DNA of 63,019 nucleotides, filler included, from Sandaracinaceae bacterium (GTDB lineage Bacteria; Myxococcota_A; Polyangia; Polyangiales; JADJQN01), in assembly GCA_947483975.1 (NCBI GenBank). It is 14 parts of 14 records of this genome, joined end to end, with 100 filler letters (N's around TTAATTAATTAA, not from the genome) between each part and the next. Parts side by side here need not be neighbours in the genome. Positions count along the whole stretch, not along the records: positions 9,274 to 13,771 come from CANKOL010000413.1; 13 more parts are not named here. One strand, written 5' to 3'. A program made the position numbers and the translations under genes. The notes under the pieces were generated by a model. It made no database searches, was not told where the DNA came from, and was given only the letters and a program-made list of their open reading frames with translations. Below, one piece after another: positions 9,274-17,178 of this stretch; the stretch's first letter is position 1, and each line of letters begins with the position of its first letter.

Positions 9274-9400
9274 ATGGCGGGGTGACGGGCGGCGGGACGG
9301 CGGGCGGCACGGGGCGCGCCGACGGGACCGGAGGCGGCCGATTCGCGGCGAGCGGGGGCGGAGGCGGGGCCTTCGGCGGAGGGGGGCGCTTCGGGTCCAT
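9274..9400 (-). CDS. Proline-rich N-terminus of a protein truncated by the contig end
   Basis: MDPKRPPPPKAPPPP... runs into the gap. Confidence 0.4.
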
Positions 9401-9449
9401 GCGGGGGAGATGGTGCCATAGGCTCGGCGGCTATGGCACGCTGCCGCGC

Positions 9450-9833
9450 GTGTCCGCCGTCTGCAAAGGCCCGCCCGAGCGCGGCGCGCTGTGGCGCGTG
9501 GCCGCGAGCGCGCTCGCCGTGGTGCTCGCGGGCATCCCCTTCGCGCCGACGCTCGACTGGTACTCGGGCCCCTTCGAGTCGCAGACCGTCGAGCAACTCT
9601 CGTTCGCGCGCGCGCTCGCGATCGGCGCGCTCGAGGTGTTCTTCATCGCGAGCGAGCACCCGCGCTACGGCACCGCGCTCTACCGGGTGGGCCAGTTCTT
9701 CGGCATCCAAGGGATGAGCCCCGAGGACAACTACACCGCGCACGCCGCCACGCTCGTCGTCGCCGGAGCCGCGTGGCTCGCGGTGGAGGTCGTGCTGCGC
9801 GAGCGCGCGCGCCGTTCGACCAGCGCGCGCTGA
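9450..9833 (+). CDS. Hypothetical membrane protein
   Basis: Two or three hydrophobic segments; start uncertain. Confidence 0.45.
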   Translation: MSAVCKGPPERGALWRVAASALAVVLAGIPFAPTLDWYSGPFESQTVEQLSFARALAIGALEVFFIASEHPRYGTALYRVGQFFGIQGMSPEDNYTAHAATLVVAGAAWLAVEVVLRERARRSTSAR

Positions 9834-9848
9834 GCTGAGGAGAGGAAC

Positions 9849-10196
9849 ATGGCCAAGTCCGCTCACATCGGCTCGAGCTTCGAAGACTTCCTCCGCGACG
9901 ACGGCCTCCTCGAGGAGGTGGACGCGCGTGTCCAGAAGCGCGTGTTCGCGGAGCAGCTTCGCGAGGCGATGAAGGACCGATCGATCACCGAGGCGGCGCT
10001 CGCGCGCGCGATGAAGACGAGCCGCACCGTCGTTCGCTCTCTCCTCGATCCGGAGGCCGAGTCCGCGACGTTGCTGACGCTCACCCGGGCGGCGCGCGCC
10101 GTCGGACGCGAGCTGCGAGTCTCCCTCGAGCCGGTGGTCGCGCGGCATGAGGCACGCGTGCGGAGCCCACGCACGCGGACGGCAGCGGCTCGTTGA
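9849..10196 (+). CDS. XRE-type HTH protein, HigA-like antitoxin family
   Basis: HIGSSFEDFL..G..EEV N-terminus, HTH (ALARAMKTSRTVVRSLLDP), TLLTLTRAARAVG; RBS gagagg. Confidence 0.8.
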   Translation: MAKSAHIGSSFEDFLRDDGLLEEVDARVQKRVFAEQLREAMKDRSITEAALARAMKTSRTVVRSLLDPEAESATLLTLTRAARAVGRELRVSLEPVVARHEARVRSPRTRTAAAR

Positions 10197-10418
10197 TCGG
10201 GTTCGAGGGCTCCTGCGGCCTGCGGCGCCGCCCCTCCCCGTAATCGTGTCGACGTCGCGCAGGGCGAAGGCGCCGGCACCAAGCGCTGTCGCATACGCGA
10301 GCGTGGCGCCGTCGTTCCCTAGTCCGCTCGCGGGATCTCGCTGTCCCCGTGATCGTGGTCAACGTCGCGCAGAGCAGAGACGTGCACTCTGTCCCGACAC
10401 CAGCTGAGGGAGGCGTCG

Positions 10419-12878
10419 ATGCGTGTCGTGCTAGTTGGAGCGGACTTCGAGGAGAACCTCGGGATCGGGATGATCGCCGCGGTCGCGGAGCAGGCGGGGC
10501 ACAAGGTCGAGATCGTGCCCTTCGATCTCCCGGAGGACGCGCCGCACGTCGCCGCGCGCATCGTCGGCGCGGGGCCCGACGTCGTCGGGCTCGGCATCCA
10601 ATTTCAGCACCGCGCGGCGGAATTCCTCACGCTCGCGCGCGATCTGCGCAGGCGCGGCTACCGCGGGCACATCACCTGCGGCGGGCAGTTCCCGACGCTC
10701 GCGTGGCGCGAGGTGCTCGAGGAGCCGAACGGGCTCGACAGCGTCGTGCTGCACGAGGGCGAGCGCGGCTTCGTCGGGCTGCTCTCGGCGCTCGAGGCGG
10801 ACACTCCGCTCGCAGAGATTCCCGGGCTCGCGGTGCTCACCGGCGACGGCGCCGCGCTCCGCACGCCCGCGCTGCCGCTGCTCGAGCAGCTCGACGAGCT
10901 GCCCTTCCCGGTGCGCTATCGCGCGCACGCCAAGCACTGCGGCATCCCGTTCATCCCCGTCATGGGCAGCCGCGGCTGCTGGGGCTCGTGCACGTACTGC
11001 TCGATCACGAGCTTCTATCGCGACGCGCGCGCGCACGGCGGCGGCAAGACGCTGCGGCAGCGCACGCCGGAGAACATCGCCGAGGAGATGGCGGTGCTCT
11101 GGCACGACGCCGGCGGGCCCAGCATCTTCTGCTTTCACGACGACAACTTCTTGATGCCGCGCCCCGCGGACTCCGCTGCGCGCGTGCGCGCGATCCGCGC
11201 GTCGCTCGACGAGCTCGGCGTCGGCAAGGCGGGCTTCATCGGCAAGTGCCGCCCGGACAGCGTCACCCCCGAGCTGATGAAAGAGCTGCGCGAGCTCGGC
11301 GTGTTCCGCCTCTACGTCGGCGTCGAGAACGCGTCGCAGCACGGCTCGGATCACCTCAACCGGCGCACGCAGACGCTGCGCGTGCGCGACGCGCTCCGCG
11401 CATGCCGCGAGGCGGGGATCTTCGTCTGTTACAACATCCTGCTCTTCGAGCCGGAGGCGACGCTCGACGACGTGCGCGAGAACATCGCGTTCATGCGCGA
11501 GCACGCGCGGCATCCGGTCAATTTCTGCCGCGCAGAGCCCTACTACGGCACGCCGCTGCAGCTCTCGCTCGTCGGGCGCGAGAACGCGGGCGGCAGCTAC
11601 CTCGGCTACAACTACCGCATCGCGGACGACCGCACGGAGCTGCTCTTTCGCGTGTGCGCGGCGGCGTTTCGGCAGCGCAACTTCGACCCCGCGGGCGTCG
11701 CGAACCGCAACATGGGCGTGGGCTACTCGATCAAGGTGCTCGAGCAGTTCTACGAGGATCCGCACGGCAAGCGCGCCGCGCTCGAGCGTCGCGCGAGCGA
11801 GGTCACGCGCACCATCTCCAACGAGACGGCGGGCTTCCTCGAGCAGGCGCTCGAGCTCGTCGAGCGCATCGGCACGCGCAACTCCGATCGCATCGAGCGC
11901 GAGACGGCGCTGCTCGGGCTGCGCATCGCCGCGGCGGACCGCGAGCGGCACCTCGACCTCGACGCGATCTACGCCGACATGGAGGCGTTCGGCGCGCGCA
12001 CGCAGCTGCCGCGCGTGCTGCAAGCGGCGACGCGCAAGCTGAAGCACGCCGCGCAGAGCGTCGCGCTGACCGCGTCGCTCGCCGTCTGGGCGAGCGCGTG
12101 CAACGCGTGCGGCTCGGCGATTCTCCCGGCGGATCCCGTGCCCGCCGACAACAACCCGAACAACTTCCCGCCGCCCGACCCGGTGCCGCCGCAGCTCGTG
12201 GTGCCCAACGATCCGGTCCCGCCGACGGTCGACTTCCGCCCGATCCCGCCGAGCGATCCGGTGCCGCAGGACCAGGTGATGGTGCCCGATCCACCGCCGC
12301 CGCCGATCGACCAGCGGCAGATGATGCCGATGGACCCGCTGCCCTACGACCGCCCCGTCGTGCACGATCCGCTGCCGATGCCGCTCCCCCCGCACGTGCG
12401 CCCGCGACATCGGCACCTGCAGCCGCCGCCGCCCGACCCGCTCCCGCCGCAGCTGCCCAACGATCCGGTGCCGGGTCCCGGTCCGATGCCGATGGACCCG
12501 CCGCCGCCGTCGACGTCGTCGCTCGATCCCTCGGCGGCGAGCGCCGTGCTCGCCTCCGCGGCGACTCCGGGCCAGTCGCTCAAGCTGATCGATCAGTGGC
12601 GTGACACGACGACTCGCCTCGCCGGTCGGACGGACGATCTGGCGCTCGCGAACCCGCCGTGGATCACGCTCCGCACCCAGCGGGAGGGCGACCTCGTGCG
12701 CGTGACCGTCGTCGGTGGGCCGCAGTCCGTCAGCCTCCGCTGGGAGACGGACGGCGAGGTCGACGGCGCCGGGCGGGAGGTGTGGTGGAAGCCCGCTTCA
12801 GCGAGCGATCAGCTGCGCGTCGCCGTGCGCAGCGGCACGGGCGTCGCCGTGACGAGCGTCCGCGCGCGCGAGGTCTGA
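10419..12878 (+). CDS. B12-binding radical SAM protein fused to a DPxP-repeat tail
   Basis: N-terminal B12-binding-like domain (ENLGIGMIAA, ITCGGQFPT), GSRGCWGSCTYC (CxxxCxxC), FHDDNF, VGVEN; RBS ggagg. Confidence 0.9.
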   Translation: MRVVLVGADFEENLGIGMIAAVAEQAGHKVEIVPFDLPEDAPHVAARIVGAGPDVVGLGIQFQHRAAEFLTLARDLRRRGYRGHITCGGQFPTLAWREVLEEPNGLDSVVLHEGERGFVGLLSALEADTPLAEIPGLAVLTGDGAALRTPALPLLEQLDELPFPVRYRAHAKHCGIPFIPVMGSRGCWGSCTYCSITSFYRDARAHGGGKTLRQRTPENIAEEMAVLWHDAGGPSIFCFHDDNFLMPRPADSAARVRAIRASLDELGVGKAGFIGKCRPDSVTPELMKELRELGVFRLYVGVENASQHGSDHLNRRTQTLRVRDALRACREAGIFVCYNILLFEPEATLDDVRENIAFMREHARHPVNFCRAEPYYGTPLQLSLVGRENAGGSYLGYNYRIADDRTELLFRVCAAAFRQRNFDPAGVANRNMGVGYSIKVLEQFYEDPHGKRAALERRASEVTRTISNETAGFLEQALELVERIGTRNSDRIERETALLGLRIAAADRERHLDLDAIYADMEAFGARTQLPRVLQAATRKLKHAAQSVALTASLAVWASACNACGSAILPADPVPADNNPNNFPPPDPVPPQLVVPNDPVPPTVDFRPIPPSDPVPQDQVMVPDPPPPPIDQRQMMPMDPLPYDRPVVHDPLPMPLPPHVRPRHRHLQPPPPDPLPPQLPNDPVPGPGPMPMDPPPPSTSSLDPSAASAVLASAATPGQSLKLIDQWRDTTTRLAGRTDDLALANPPWITLRTQREGDLVRVTVVGGPQSVSLRWETDGEVDGAGREVWWKPASASDQLRVAVRSGTGVAVTSVRAREV
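12132..12530 (+). repeat. Ten D-P-[V/L/P]-P peptide motifs in a Pro-rich region
   Basis: ADPVP, PDPVP, NDPVP, SDPVP, PDPPP, MDPLP, HDPLP, PDPLP, NDPVP, MDPPP. Confidence 0.9.
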
Positions 12879-12942
12879 CGCTGAAGGACCAGCACGCCCG
12901 GCCCCCGTCAGGCTGCTAGGCTCGCGGCCCTGGAGGCCGACG

Positions 12943-13641
12943 ATGGCAGACGATGAGAGCACTCGACTCAAGCGAGACGCCGCCCACGCGGCGCTCGCGC
13001 TCCTCCCCGAGCGCGGCACGATCGGCCTCGGCAGCGGCTCGACCGCCAAGCTCTTCATCGAGGCGCTCGCCGAGCTAGTGCGCGGCGGGCGTGACCTCGT
13101 CGGCGTGCCGTCCTCGCGAGAGAGCGAGACGCTCGCGCGCTCGCTCGGCATCCCGCTGCTAGCGGACGACGGCCCGTGGGACATCGACGTCTGCTTCGAC
13201 GGCGCCGACGAGGTGGACCCGCAACTCGACGTGATCAAGGGCGGCGGCGGGATGCTGACGCGCGAGAAGATCGTGATCGCCGCGGCGCGGAGCACCGTCT
13301 TGCTCGTCGACGAGAGCAAGCTCGTCCGCGCCCTCGGCACGACGTGGCGCGTGCCGGTCGAGGTCGTCGCCTTCGGACACCGCGCGACGGCGGCACGGCT
13401 CAGCGCGTTCGGCGAGCCGCGCCTGCGCCTGACGCGCGAGGGCGCGCCCTTCAAGACCGATCAGAACTGCGTGATCTACGACGTCGCGACGGGCCCGATC
13501 GCCGACGCGCCTGCGCTCGAGCGCGACCTCGAGCACGTGCCTGGCGTCGTCACCGTGGGGCTCTTCACGGGGCGCGCAGACCGCGTGATCGTCGCCGCGT
13601 CGTCGGGAGTGCGCACGCTCGTCCGCGGCGCGCGCGCCTAG
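12943..13641 (+). CDS. rpiA: Ribose-5-phosphate isomerase A
   Basis: IGLGSGST, DGADEVD and IKGGGG..TREKIV motifs. Confidence 0.95.
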   Translation: MADDESTRLKRDAAHAALALLPERGTIGLGSGSTAKLFIEALAELVRGGRDLVGVPSSRESETLARSLGIPLLADDGPWDIDVCFDGADEVDPQLDVIKGGGGMLTREKIVIAAARSTVLLVDESKLVRALGTTWRVPVEVVAFGHRATAARLSAFGEPRLRLTREGAPFKTDQNCVIYDVATGPIADAPALERDLEHVPGVVTVGLFTGRADRVIVAASSGVRTLVRGARA

Positions 13642-13871
13642 CGCAGCGCCTCAGGGCGGGGTGTGACAGCTGACCGGCTCCTCGCTCCGCAGCGACGGAA
13701 TCGGGCGCACCGCGAGCGCGACGGCGCCGAGCGCGAGCGCCAGCGCCGCGAGGCGAAGCCCGACGGGCCCCNNNNNNNNNNNNNNNNNNNNNNNNNNNNN
13801 NNNNNNNNNNNNNNNTTAATTAATTAANNNNNNNNNNNNNNNNNNNNNNNNNNNNNNNNNNNNNNNNNNNN

Positions 13872-16108
13872 ACGATCGGCGCAGGCGCCGGCCCGAGCAC
13901 GCGCACCAGCCCGCGCTTGACGGCGGGGTGCGCCCGCGCGACCCGCGCGAGCTCCTGCGTCACCGCCTCCGCCTGCCCCTCGTCGCCCGCGTCGACGCGC
14001 ACCGCGACGAGCCGCGAGAACGGCGTGTACCCGAGCTCGCGCCGCGCCTCGAGCTCCACCGCGTAGAAGCCGAGGTAGTCGTGGCGGCTCGCCTGCACGA
14101 TGGCCGAGTGCTCGGGCTGAAACGTCTGCAGGATGACGCGCCCCTCCTCTTCGCCGCGCCCCGCGCGCCCCGCGACCTGCGCGAGCAGCTGAAACGTGCG
14201 CTCCGCCGAGCGAAAGTCCGGGAACGCGAGCGACTGATCCGCGAGCACGACGCCGACGAGCGTCACGCCCGGCAGATCGTGCCCCTTCGTGACCATCTGC
14301 GTACCCACCAAGATGTCGAGCTCGCGCCGCCGCATCCGATCGAGCACCGCCTCGACGCCCTCGACGCCCGCCGCCGTGTCGCGATCGAGCCGCGCGACGC
14401 GCGCCGGCGCGAAGGTCTGCGCGAGCGCCTCCTCGAGCCGCTCCGTCCCCAGCCCGATCGGCTCGAGCCCGAGCTCGCCGCACTTCAAGCAAGCGCCCGT
14501 CGAGGGCGCCGCGAAGTCGCAGTAGTGACAGCGCAGCGCGCGCGCGCGGCGGTGCTCGGTGAGCGTGACGCTGCACGCCGGGCACTCCATCACCTCGGAG
14601 CACGCCGGGCAGCGCAGCGTCGGCGAGAAGCCGCGCCGGTTGAGGAACAAGATCGCCTGCCCCTGCTGCGCGAGGCACTTCTCGAGCGCGCGATGGAGCG
14701 GCGTCGTGAGCAGCGGGTGCCCGCTCGGCGTGCCCTTGTACCGCGCGAGATCGACGATCTCGACGGCGGGCAGCGGGCGCGGCGTCGCGCGCTCCGGCAG
14801 CGAGAGCCGCGTCAGCTTGGCGCCCTCCGAGAGGCTGTACGTCTCGACGCTCGGCGTCGCGCTGCCGAGCACGCACACGGCCCCCGCGCGGTGCGCGCGC
14901 AGGAGCGCGAGGTCGCGCGCGTGATAACGAAAGCCCTCCTCTTGCTTGAACGAAGGGTCGTGCTCCTCGTCGACGACGATCACGCCGAGCCGCTGCACCG
15001 GCGCGAAGATCGCCGAGCGCGCGCCGATCGCGAGCGTCACCTTCCCGCTGCGGAGCGCCCGCCAAGCGTCGTTGCGCTCGCGCTCCTTCAGCCCGCTGTG
15101 CAGCACCGCGAGGTCGTCCCCGAAGCGCGCGCGAAAACGCCCGACGAGCTGCGGCGTGAGCGCGATCTCCGGCACGAGCAAGATCGCCCCGCGTCCCTGT
15201 TCGCGCGCCTCGGCGATCGTGCGCAGGTAGACCTCCGTCTTCCCCGAGCCCGTCACGCCGTGCAGCAAAAAGCCGTGATAGCCGCCCGCGTTCACCGCGC
15301 CGACGAGCGCGTCCATCGCCGTCTGCTGCGCGGCGTTCGGCACCGGCGCGACGTCGCGCTCGACGGGCACGGCGAAGTAGCGATCCGCGACGACCTCGCG
15401 CTCCTCTGTCGCGACGAGCCCGCGCTTGACGAGCGCGCGCAGCACCGTGCGCGGCTCCTCGAGGTGCTGCCGAAGCTCCGCGAGCGTCACCTCGCCGCGC
15501 TCCTCGAGCAGCGCCAAGAGCGCCCGCTGCCGCTCCCCGAGGCGCGCGTCCCCGACAGGCTCCGGCGTGCGCCGGGCGATCAGCTCGGTGCGCGTGCCGA
15601 GCGCCGCGCCGGGCAGCGCCTCGTCCTCTTCGAGAAAGCCGTGCTCCCGCAGCCTCGAGAACGCCTCGCGCGGCAGCGCGGGGGTCGCCGCGCGCAGCAC
15701 CTCGCCCACCGGATGCAGGTAGTAGTCCGCCGCCTCGACGAGCAGCGCGAGCAATTCCGCAGGGAACACGGGCTCCGCGTCCACGATCCCCGCGATGCTC
15801 CGCACGCGCCCGCTGCTCGGCGCCGCCTCGGCGCGCCCGAGCACGATCCCCGGCAATTTGCGCGGCCCGAACGGCACGGCGACGCGCACTCCAGGCGCGA
15901 TCTGCGCCACCAGCGCGGGCGGCACTCGGTACGTGAAGCGGCGCCGGATCGGCACCGGCATCGCGACCTCGACGAGGTACGCGTCCGCGTCGAGCGGCTC
16001 GACCTCGCGCTCGGCTCGCCCCGCAGACGGCGCGCGCGGCGGCTTCGGTCGCGGCGCGCCCGTGTCGAACAGCGTCGTCAGCGGCGGCTGTATCGGCGGC
16101 TTCGTCAA
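13872..16108 (-). CDS. priA: Primosomal protein N' (3' truncated)
   Basis: GVTGSGKTEVY, LVPEIALTPQ, DEEHD, two Zn knuckles, QVAGRAGR; TTG start at 16108 overlaps the upstream stop. Confidence 0.95.
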
Positions 16109-17178
16109 CGCGGCTCGCCTGCGTCGCGCCCCTCGGACGCCTCGCGCTCTTTCCACGCCGCGTGCAGCACGGCGGCGACCGCCTCGTAGAGCGCCTCGGG
16201 GATCTCGTCGCCCTCCTCGAGCCCGAAGAGCGCGTGCGCGAGCGGCACATCCCGCAGCACCGGCACGCCCGCCTCCTCGGCCGCGCGGATCATGCGCTGC
16301 GCGAGCTCGTCCATGCCCTTCGCGAGCAGCTCCGGCGCCTCTTGCTCGGCGGCCTCGTCGTACTTCAGCGCGATGGCGAGGTGCGTCGGGTTCACGACGA
16401 GCACGTCCGCCCGGCGCACGCGCTCGAGGACGCCGTGCTCGAGCAGCTCCCGCCGCAGCCGCTCGCGCTCGCCCTTCGTGTGCGGGTCTCCGTCGCTCTC
16501 CTTGTGTTCACGCTTCACCTCGTCCTCCGACATCTTCTGCTCTTCCAGAAAACGCCAGCGCTGGTAGAGCACGTCGAGCACGGCGACGACCGCGAGCGCG
16601 CCGCCCGCGCGAAAGAGCAGCGCCGAGAGGAGCGCGCCGGCGCCCGAGAGCGCCGCCTCGGCGTCCGCTCCCGTCAGCGCGAGCGTGCCGCGGAGCCCAT
16701 CGCGCAGGCTCGAGTACGCGACCCAGCCGATCAACGACAGCTTGAGCAGCGACTTCAGCAGCTCGATCAGCTGCTTCTTCGAGAACAGGTTCTTCGCGCC
16801 CGAGATCGGATCGACGCGCGAGAGTTGTGGCGCGACGGCGTCGAGCGCGAGCATCGGCCCGACCTGCAAGAAGCTCGCGAGCGTGCCCGCGACGAGCGCC
16901 GCGACGAGCACCGGCGCGACCGCCCGCAGCCCGAGCCCCAGCACCGTCTCGAGCACGGCGCCGGGCGACGCGACGAGCCCGCCCTCGATGCTGCGCAGCA
17001 CGAGCGCGAAGCTCGCGCGCAGCGCCTCGAGCAGCGGCGTCCCCGAAAACGAGAGCGCCCCCGCAGCCGCGAGGACGACCGCCGCCGTGCCGAGCTCGCG
17101 GCTCTTCGCGACCTGCCCCTTCTTGCGGGCGTCGCGGAGCTTCTTCTCGGTAGGCTGCTCTGTCTTCTCGCCGGACAC
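16105..17178 (-). CDS. EscU/YscU/FlhB family type III export switch protein
   Basis: EKTEQPTEKKLRDARKKGQVAKSRE, KMSEDEVKREHKESDGDP, NPTH autocleavage motif. Confidence 0.92.
   Translation of the reverse strand: MSGEKTEQPTEKKLRDARKKGQVAKSRELGTAAVVLAAAGALSFSGTPLLEALRASFALVLRSIEGGLVASPGAVLETVLGLGLRAVAPVLVAALVAGTLASFLQVGPMLALDAVAPQLSRVDPISGAKNLFSKKQLIELLKSLLKLSLIGWVAYSSLRDGLRGTLALTGADAEAALSGAGALLSALLFRAGGALAVVAVLDVLYQRWRFLEEQKMSEDEVKREHKESDGDPHTKGERERLRRELLEHGVLERVRRADVLVVNPTHLAIALKYDEAAEQEAPELLAKGMDELAQRMIRAAEEAGVPVLRDVPLAHALFGLEEGDEIPEALYEAVAAVLHAAWKEREASEGRDAGEPR

Follow-up and report, generated by a model that had tools for sequence, protein, structure and literature searches.

The stretch of DNA analysed here, 63,019 nucleotides (nt) from the Sandaracinaceae bacterium assembly GCA_947483975.1 (hereafter the window), carries an open reading frame (ORF) at 10419..12878 (+) that joins a cobalamin (B12)-dependent radical S-adenosylmethionine (SAM) enzyme and a lipoprotein-like module in one polypeptide of 819 amino acids (aa). 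This gene is best explained as encoding a two-part precursor, with the enzyme in aa 1-552 and a complete lipoprotein module in aa 538-819, and comparison with its relatives suggests that the module is probably the enzyme's own substrate. In its full form, to which we would give an even chance, the reading is that the enzyme acts in the cytoplasm on the short motifs of its own tail before the tail enters the Sec export and lipoprotein processing route; it was reached by comparative analysis. An enzyme-substrate relationship is preferred because distant relatives that encode the two parts separately keep the genes as pairs, often translationally coupled, because the motif lies next to the lipobox, because the motif changes together with the enzyme clade, and because no other gene recurs in the vicinity.

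The layout described in the initial annotation, namely an 819-aa ORF with a B12-binding domain, a CxxxCxxC radical SAM core, a helical extension, a signal-like segment ending in ASAC and a C-terminal beta domain, was found in all its parts. The gene (819 aa plus stop; G000:C413:1146-3602) is preceded by a Shine-Dalgarno-like sequence, GAGGGAGG, at 10406..10413 (+), 5 nt before the ATG, as read by eye. The junction between enzyme and tail is covered by a 2,459-base contig from a different study, which spans 11800-12900 with 10 substitutions and a compensating indel pair, one base lost at 12356 and one gained after 12364, relative to the window, and a second contig of 972 bases from another sample is identical over 11858-12829. 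Since an independent contig spans the junction, the fusion is not the assembly artefact that had initially been considered as a way in which the annotation might fail. An internal translation start was considered and rejected: a GTG is present at 12012-12014, but no Shine-Dalgarno-like sequence lies upstream of it and homologs have no conserved Met or Val there.

Based on its domains and predicted fold, the first part is a class B (cobalamin-dependent) radical SAM enzyme, for which cofactor binding and SAM cleavage are predicted. Residues 11-121 (10449..10781 (+)) match the cobalamin-binding domain PF02310 in Pfam with 62.9 bits (cut-off 32.1; E 3.4e-17), and residues 184-354 (10968..11480 (+)) match the radical SAM core PF04055 with 71.6 bits (cut-off 29.5; E 1.1e-19), the latter enclosing the cluster motif CWGSCTYC (aa 187-194, nt 10977-11000 (+)). 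Homolog statistics here and below rest on the best 120 of 626 relatives; among these Cys191 and Cys194 are invariant, Cys187 is conserved in at least 90%, and many further invariant residues are found in aa 355-436. A full-length AlphaFold2 (AF2) model built on the alignment of the 120 homologs gave the head, aa 1-552, predicted local distance difference test (pLDDT) values of 84-99. The enzyme's C-terminal subdomain and long helical extension (aa 404-552, 11628..12074 (+)) were delimited from conservation and from AF2 helices at aa 404-444, 452-484, 489-528 and 539-552, likewise with pLDDT 84-99. Foldseek searches with this model returned OxsB (1.3e-22), MgmA (9ccb; 7.4e-19) and TsrM (9e-18), and also TokK and CysS, with only 13-20% identity to the matched class B enzymes in the structural alignments. 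By sequence, the top PDB match was again 9ccb, the protein-modifying glutamine methylase MgmA (E 1.2e-8). None of 21 NCBIfam matches attained its curated cut-off (HpnR, 91.8 against 650 bits; ApyD, 89.5 against 750; HpnJ, 74 against 577.6; BchE, 72.4 against 481), which by sequence places the enzyme outside every curated NCBIfam subfamily.

Between the enzyme and its motif-bearing tail lies the segment that the initial annotation had recorded as signal-like. Such a segment is indeed present, and it had been under-read: by its anatomy it is a lipoprotein (signal peptidase II, SPII)-type signal, with lipidation and cleavage predicted. Delimited from the segment itself, from homologs and from the split relatives described below, it reads TRKLKHAAQSVALTASLAVWASAC (aa 538-561, 12030..12101 (+)) and comprises the n-region RKLKH, the h-region AAQSVALTASLAVWA and the lipobox-like ASAC, which ends in Cys561 (nt 12099-12101). 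A Cys follows immediately after the hydrophobic run in 120/120 homologs and is preceded by Gly in 67, Ala in 48, Ser in four and Arg in one (Gly, Ala or Ser in 119/120); the median uncharged run is 20 residues long, and the 12 residues ahead of it hold a median of four Arg or Lys. A PROSITE-like lipobox pattern matched at the signal in 88/120 homologs and elsewhere in the protein in 4/120. The h-region is short and rich in Ala, Ser and Gly, with a mean hydropathy of 1.48 in its best 17-residue window. In the window gene the signal is buried within the polypeptide; it is N-terminal only in the split relatives. For the lipoprotein pathway, two LspA matches and eight Lgt-family matches were found in the genome, an unusually rich processing set for one genome, and at G000:C343:3458-5512 two LspA (signal peptidase II) genes stand in tandem, followed by an Lgt-like gene. 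Given a lipoprotein-type signal, the tail is most likely exported and lipidated, so that the predicted product would be a modified lipoprotein and not a small released peptide. The self-modifying system initially proposed, likened to peptides synthesised by ribosomes and then modified post-translationally (RiPPs), thus agrees with the comparative pattern in pairing enzyme and substrate, and departs from it in the kind of product.

Beyond the signal, aa 572-696 (12132..12506 (+)) form a region of ten DPxP motifs that is predicted to be disordered, as judged from the motif positions and low pLDDT (below 50 for aa 553-726 in the full-length model). The motifs, of the form [V/P][V/P]DPxP, start at aa 572, 587, 598, 613, 624, 639, 650, 673, 682 and 693, i.e. 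in the number and at the places given in the initial annotation. Their spacing, which had been called irregular, actually alternates between 15 and 11 residues over the first six intervals, making a double unit of 26 aa. The earlier view that the motif is conserved at the protein level and is not a product of DNA slippage is borne out: Tandem Repeats Finder gave 0 rows for 11900-12880, so no DNA-level tandem repeat is present, and DPxP is enriched approximately 6-fold in the homolog linkers (563 against 94.2 in shuffles; 97/120 linkers parsed), with 10 in the linker of the window gene against 1.83 in shuffles of its own composition. Every one of the 120 homologs carries the motif, in 2-14 copies (median 5), the first lying a median of 8 aa past the Cys; in extended form the consensus reads [M/P]-V-V-D-P-[PVLA]-P-[P]-D-[A], and the pattern [VIMA][VIA]D[PLAM]xP was counted 380 times in tails against a single time in heads. 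By these counts DPxP is conserved and specific to the tail, and is not a generic Pro-rich linker, as it might have been had homologs lacked it. Strain variants (two runs, another study) differ at window positions 12353-12382 by an indel pair and substitutions, all in the spacer that follows the DPLP motifs (aa 639 and 650), and they keep the reading frame and the motifs.

More distant relatives, 32-40% identical, hold the enzyme and the lipoprotein as two genes. Searching 401 sampled genomes of the phylum with the enzyme part (aa 1-540) gave 58 matches in 39 genomes, of which 16 matches were left out; 39 loci were examined, comprising 29 returned by the search and 10 picked for short open frames. 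The fused form with a lipobox-like Cys was seen in 26/39 (25 by pattern and L103 by eye), and the remaining 13 were tail-less, ending within 116 residues of the enzyme alignment. Eight of these 13 are accompanied on the same strand by a gene for a protein with an N-terminal SPII-type signal, which starts between -3 and +45 nt from the enzyme stop: in five (L109, L115, L118, L119 and L124) stop and start overlap as ATGA, and in L120, L122 and L111 the start lies at +3, +21 and +45, respectively. The motif [AV]VDPxP follows the Cys in six of the eight lipoproteins, with post-Cys sequences such as ..STC|SGIGAVDPAPPP, ..TGC|TGFGVVDPLPMD and ..TAC|GCDPVPHP...VVCDPMPAP. L119 and L122 carry YAVVDP[LM]P[PA]P approximately 65 residues past the Cys, L118 additionally has DPVP two residues past it, L115 has its motif directly at the Cys (..TAC|DPTPEP), and L120 has ADPAF only. 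In a maximum-likelihood tree of 37 enzyme parts, the clades of fused, split and four partner-less forms were recovered with support of 100/100 or 100/99; the root is arbitrary and the order between the clades is not fixed.

Variation in DPxP copy number among homologs and the occurrence of the tail as an adjacent gene, both of which had been put forward initially as comparisons worth making, are what an enzyme and its substrate would be expected to show. Moreover, as separate chains on opposite sides of the membrane, a signal-less enzyme and a lipoprotein could meet only in the cytoplasm, before export. The split precursors of L119, L122 and L124 have an extension of approximately 35 aa before the signal, containing L-[LM]-P-E-[VI]-L-P-x-P, and the enzymes of these loci end in ..PLT.IGD[RI].[AM]TPLQ..; by their sequences, the two may form a leader-like recognition pair. 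At the tail-less locus L121 (G230:C2), a TTGA overlap leads into a 356-aa ORF with an atypical signal (..TAALVC) and a PEEMPSMPIPEP stretch, a candidate for a further split form.

The genome of the window encodes two paralogs. One, G000:C79 (L002:1501-3816; 771 aa), belongs to the same family and has motifs of the PVDPxPxDAG type. The other, G000:C95 (L003:1435-3690; 751 aa, 37% identical), represents a sister family with 814 matches, whose source names include Myxococcales, Planctomycetota and Vicinamibacteria. Its layout is that of an enzyme, helices, a buried signal (..LSLGTAGC), a Pro-rich stretch lacking DPxP and an end domain of another kind, and it has THPSEMIAPP near its end. This end domain matched nothing in Pfam or NCBIfam, and a TonB_C-like reading of it was dropped as being without support from either database. 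Of 115 sister-family proteins with a length of 600 aa or more, 97 have a Cys behind the h-region and 18 lack it. Most members share the motif [ST]-H-[PA]-[TS]-E-M-[VAI]-A-x-P, in 0-3 copies and usually at a distance of 5-11 residues past the Cys. For the pattern H.[STC]E[MTIV], the counts are 89 in sister-family tails, two in their heads and one in the tails of the first family, while motifs of the VVDPxP kind number 15 in sister-family tails. Two fused relatives, L107 and L110, have the motif-bearing Pro-rich tail only, with no end domain. Variants with multiplied motifs also exist: L112 (G262:C303) is a fused 959-aa frame with four THMCEMAPPP between modules of approximately 110 aa, resembling a multi-core precursor, and L123 ends in five tandem x-x-x-E-M-x-P-x-P units. 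Because the sister family and the variants L107, L110, L112 and L123 keep them, the conserved unit, as judged from sequence, is the enzyme, the signal and a short acidic/Pro motif, and this motif covaries with the enzyme clade.

The hydrophobic segment could be interpreted differently, as an uncleaved type II signal anchor that holds the enzyme at the membrane for work on some other substrate, e.g. a lipid, with the tether and the end domain localising or regulating it in a TonB-like manner. We regard this as rather unlikely. It would suit the best NCBIfam match, HpnR, since the hopanoid methylases HpnR and HpnP act on a lipid, although that score, like all the NCBIfam scores, is far below its cut-off. 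A cytoplasmic part followed by a hydrophobic segment, a Pro-rich spacer and a small end domain does resemble TonB, and the long helices of aa 452-552 run stalk-like into the hydrophobic segment; the tail, however, matches neither TonB_C nor any other Pfam or NCBIfam domain. The sister-family proteins that lack the Cys indicate that lipidation is not universal. Yet in the eight split relatives the lipoprotein is a separate gene product, which allows no tether, and the pairing is still kept. Furthermore, an h-region so short and so rich in Ala, Ser and Gly is more like a cleavable signal than a transmembrane helix, and an anchor leaves the conserved [GAS]-Cys and the clade-specific post-Cys motifs unexplained.

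The tail ends in an immunoglobulin-like (Ig-like) beta sandwich of seven strands (aa 749-815, 12663..12863 (+)), predicted with pLDDT 94-98 both in isolation and in the full-length AF2 model. Foldseek returned no match for this domain at E <= 0.001, the highest VIA-align Z, 7.4, fell among generic Ig-like, PKD and FN3-type domains, and no usable match for the tail was found in the ESM Atlas. A hidden Markov model of the end domain, made from its alignment, matched 120/120 homologs. Immediately ahead of it, a linear segment, SLKLIDQWRDTTTRLAGRTDDLALANPP (aa 720-747, 12576..12659 (+)), with the pattern L-I-D-Q-W-R-D-T...R..D-L-P-L..P-P, is the most conserved part of the tail, its W and R being invariant in 40 aligned domains. 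This segment has low pLDDT in the isolated-domain model, while aa 731-740 reach 80 in the full-length model.

Such conservation raises the alternative that the enzyme does act on the lipoprotein module but at another place, namely aa 720-747, the lipobox Cys or the signal region, with DPxP serving as a rigid periplasmic spacer. An invariant W and R in a segment predicted to be unstructured in the isolated domain would make plausible targets, given that Trp, Arg and Gln are methylated by the class B enzymes TsrM, Mmp10 and MgmA, respectively. However, both the segment and the Ig-like domain are missing from the sister family (0/120) and from the fused L107 and L110, whereas [AV]VDPxP persists in the split forms, and we consider a target outside the motifs improbable.

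Under the enzyme-substrate reading, maturation would proceed as follows. The enzyme would fold in the cytoplasm and modify the repeated DPxP motifs of its own tail in cis. C-methylation is the commonest class B radical SAM reaction, and for this reason our guess, by analogy, is a C-methylation, adding 14 Da per site, on or beside the Asp or Pro or on the preceding Val. The internal signal would then insert with its N-terminal side in and its C-terminal side out, Sec would translocate the tail, Lgt would lipidate C561, and signal peptidase II would cut before C561, releasing the modified lipoprotein into the envelope and leaving the enzyme behind. What the sequences themselves establish is the architecture and its conservation, the enrichment of the motif and the occurrence of two-gene forms; export, cleavage, modification in cis and the chemistry are all inferred steps.

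Several observations weigh against this scheme. The lipobox is imperfect, as ASAC has Ala at position -3, where Leu is usual, and 32/120 homologs miss the PROSITE-like pattern. We know of no demonstrated SPII signal that works 540 residues inside a protein, and Lgt and Lsp might refuse a buried signal, leaving an uncleaved anchor. A 1:1 fusion of a 550-aa, cofactor-rich enzyme to every substrate molecule is costly. AF2 places no DPxP motif in the enzyme, and the sequencing runs found for the gene include no RNA run that would attest expression. A clear adjacent lipoprotein gene is absent in 5/13 tail-less loci (L114, L116, L121, L125 and L127), and the 8/13 that have one do not represent an unbiased frequency, since 10 loci were chosen for their short reading frames. 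Finally, the predicted template modelling score (pTM) of the full-length model, 0.80, exceeds what the head alone could give (552/819 = 0.67), a hint that the model sets the Ig-like domain against the enzyme; a permanent contact of this kind would argue against export.

These last values also bear on the alternative of a wholly cytoplasmic protein, in which the hydrophobic segment has no signal function, the Ig-like domain stays docked on the enzyme for substrate recognition or regulation, and the DPxP stretch is a flexible linker or binding platform. The pTM suggests that the Ig-like domain is confidently placed relative to the head, and the pLDDT of aa 731-746, approximately 49-62 when the domain is modelled alone, climbs to 80-94 in the full-length model. 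This rise might, however, reflect only the deeper alignment (120 against 40 rows). In the split forms, moreover, the same segment forms the N-terminal part of a separate protein and has the anatomy of a classic signal; the positive n-region and the [GAS]-Cys are kept in all but one of the 120 homologs, and an Ig-like sandwich on a Pro-rich or disordered tether behind a lipobox is typical of envelope lipoproteins. A purely cytoplasmic role therefore seems to us decidedly improbable.

As to distribution, a search of 5.8 billion proteins yielded 7,999 candidates that were scored, 626 of which are the relatives referred to above; the best 120 are all 715-856 aa long. The named records are all metagenome-assembled Myxococcota, assigned to Sandaracinaceae, Polyangiaceae and Polyangiales. 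The end-domain profile gave 151 matches in 1.84 billion representatives, and among the matches listed the domain lies at or near the C-terminus. Within the 401 sampled genomes the domain was found in 15, and all 18 matches fall in open frames of 544-1,346 aa. Among 13 shorter database matches no clear free-standing tail or Ig-like domain was seen; all 13 begin in the enzyme's helical part or in the linker and were read as fragments. Likewise, 20 short end-domain matches that were read include none with an unambiguous start of its own upstream of the signal, and the three that begin at or in the signal (P0148, P0149 and P0167) are indistinguishable from truncated gene calls.

No recurring neighbour gene was found in 80 related loci, within up to 10 kb on each side, using a crude GC3-based gene caller that may miss small genes; all that was seen were scattered Ser/Thr kinase genes and, between close relatives, local synteny. 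When 81 neighbour ORFs from 32 loci, and two more from the window, were scanned against Pfam, the result was a heterogeneous mix with nothing recurrent, and no MNIO was detected among the 81. The window itself consists of short contigs joined by N, whose runs give X in the ORF translations around 9220, 13800 and elsewhere, and synteny is meaningful only within approximately 9274-13771. Upstream of the gene, a 115-aa ORF at 9849-10196 (+) has a weak match to Cro/C1-type helix-turn-helix (HTH) proteins (E 0.0012, below the cut-off); downstream, 12943-13641 (+) encodes ribose-5-phosphate isomerase A (Pfam, 180 bits); and on the next contig in the window, 13880-16156 (-) encodes a PriA helicase. 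None of these three recurs beside homologs. The initial annotation had noted that no partner was visible on the contig, which carries little weight for a contig of only 4,498 bases.

Enzyme and substrate core are combined in one polypeptide in the borosin OphMA and in BURP-domain cyclases, where, as proposed here, the core is C-terminal and repeatable and no separate precursor gene is needed; in the present case autocatalysis is an inferred property. Those systems use a SAM-dependent N-methyltransferase or a copper BURP domain in place of a B12 radical SAM enzyme, lack an export signal separating enzyme from core, and yield cores that a protease frees in the form of small peptides; most of them are eukaryotic, and bacterial borosins exist. 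TonB-type proteins share a membrane segment, a Pro-rich extended spacer and a small C-terminal domain with the window gene product, but the TonB spacer consists of (EP)n/(KP)n and not of a specific repeated motif, and the window gene product differs further in its 550-aa N-terminal enzyme, in its segment ending in a lipobox Cys and in giving no TonB_C match. The class B modifiers of peptides and proteins, MgmA/QCMT, Mmp10, TsrM, PoyB/PoyC, CysS and ApyD, have the same B12 domain and CxxxCxxC core; to our knowledge, none has been described as fused to its substrate or to a signal peptide. MgmA is reported to methylate Gln in a folded protein. ApyD is not an Asp methylase, its reported target being the beta-carbon of Tyr8 in a RiPP (PMC13192836). 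A 2026 review of B12 radical SAM enzymes (PMC12931638) uses the words 'fused', 'fusion', 'lipoprotein' and 'membrane' 0 times.

The closest logic that has been shown experimentally is that of the DAG-RiPPs (PNAS 2026, PMC13056109), because cytoplasmic MNIO enzymes there modify precursors with SPII signals, which subsequently enter the lipoprotein pathway. The likeness extends to the signal-less cytoplasmic enzyme, to lipidation of the lipobox Cys and SPII cleavage (predicted in the present case), and to motifs that are short, conserved and sometimes repeated (PMC13056109). In contrast, DAG-RiPP enzymes are MNIOs of the ChrH/DybH type acting on Cys motifs, and the precursor is a separate gene, whereas a B12 radical SAM enzyme and its candidate substrate here share one polypeptide with an internal signal, and the part predicted to be exported is a protein of approximately 260 aa with a folded domain, unlike DAG-RiPPs (PMC13056109). 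The terms 'radical SAM', 'cobalamin' and 'fused' occur 0 times in the main text of that paper (PMC13056109). No description of the architecture was found in the full-text literature searched, whose coverage is that of articles outside subscription journals and without supplements. We see in the system a variant on three familiar themes, namely protein modification by class B radical SAM enzymes, fusion of an enzyme to its precursor and RiPP-lipoprotein maturation; it has a fair chance of being a new route in its own right. More tentatively, and at clearly less than even probability, we suggest a new route of envelope-protein maturation, in which a B12 radical SAM enzyme would modify repeated [V]VDPxP motifs, or [ST]HPTEMxAxP in the sister clade, at the carbon level on a lipoprotein joined to it or translationally coupled to it; an internal SPII signal would export the modified part, with signal peptidase II cutting it off as the protease of a bacterial 'polyprotein'.

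Exported proteins with structural or surface roles are an almost unexplored field for radical SAM chemistry, and a conserved stand-alone gene that holds both an enzyme and its candidate substrate offers an unusually direct handle on a new protein modification. The system also bears on whether Sec, Lgt and Lsp can process a signal buried 540 residues deep. If the more tentative reading, that of a new maturation route, is true, these would be the first radical-SAM-modified lipoproteins and the first functional lipoprotein signal deep inside a polypeptide. The logic of RiPP-lipoprotein maturation would then reach beyond MNIO enzymes to those of the class B radical SAM kind, and beyond small peptides to folded proteins, and a new modification of Asp/Pro/Val-type motifs would be present in Myxococcota and, going by the sister family's source names, in Planctomycetota and Acidobacteriota.

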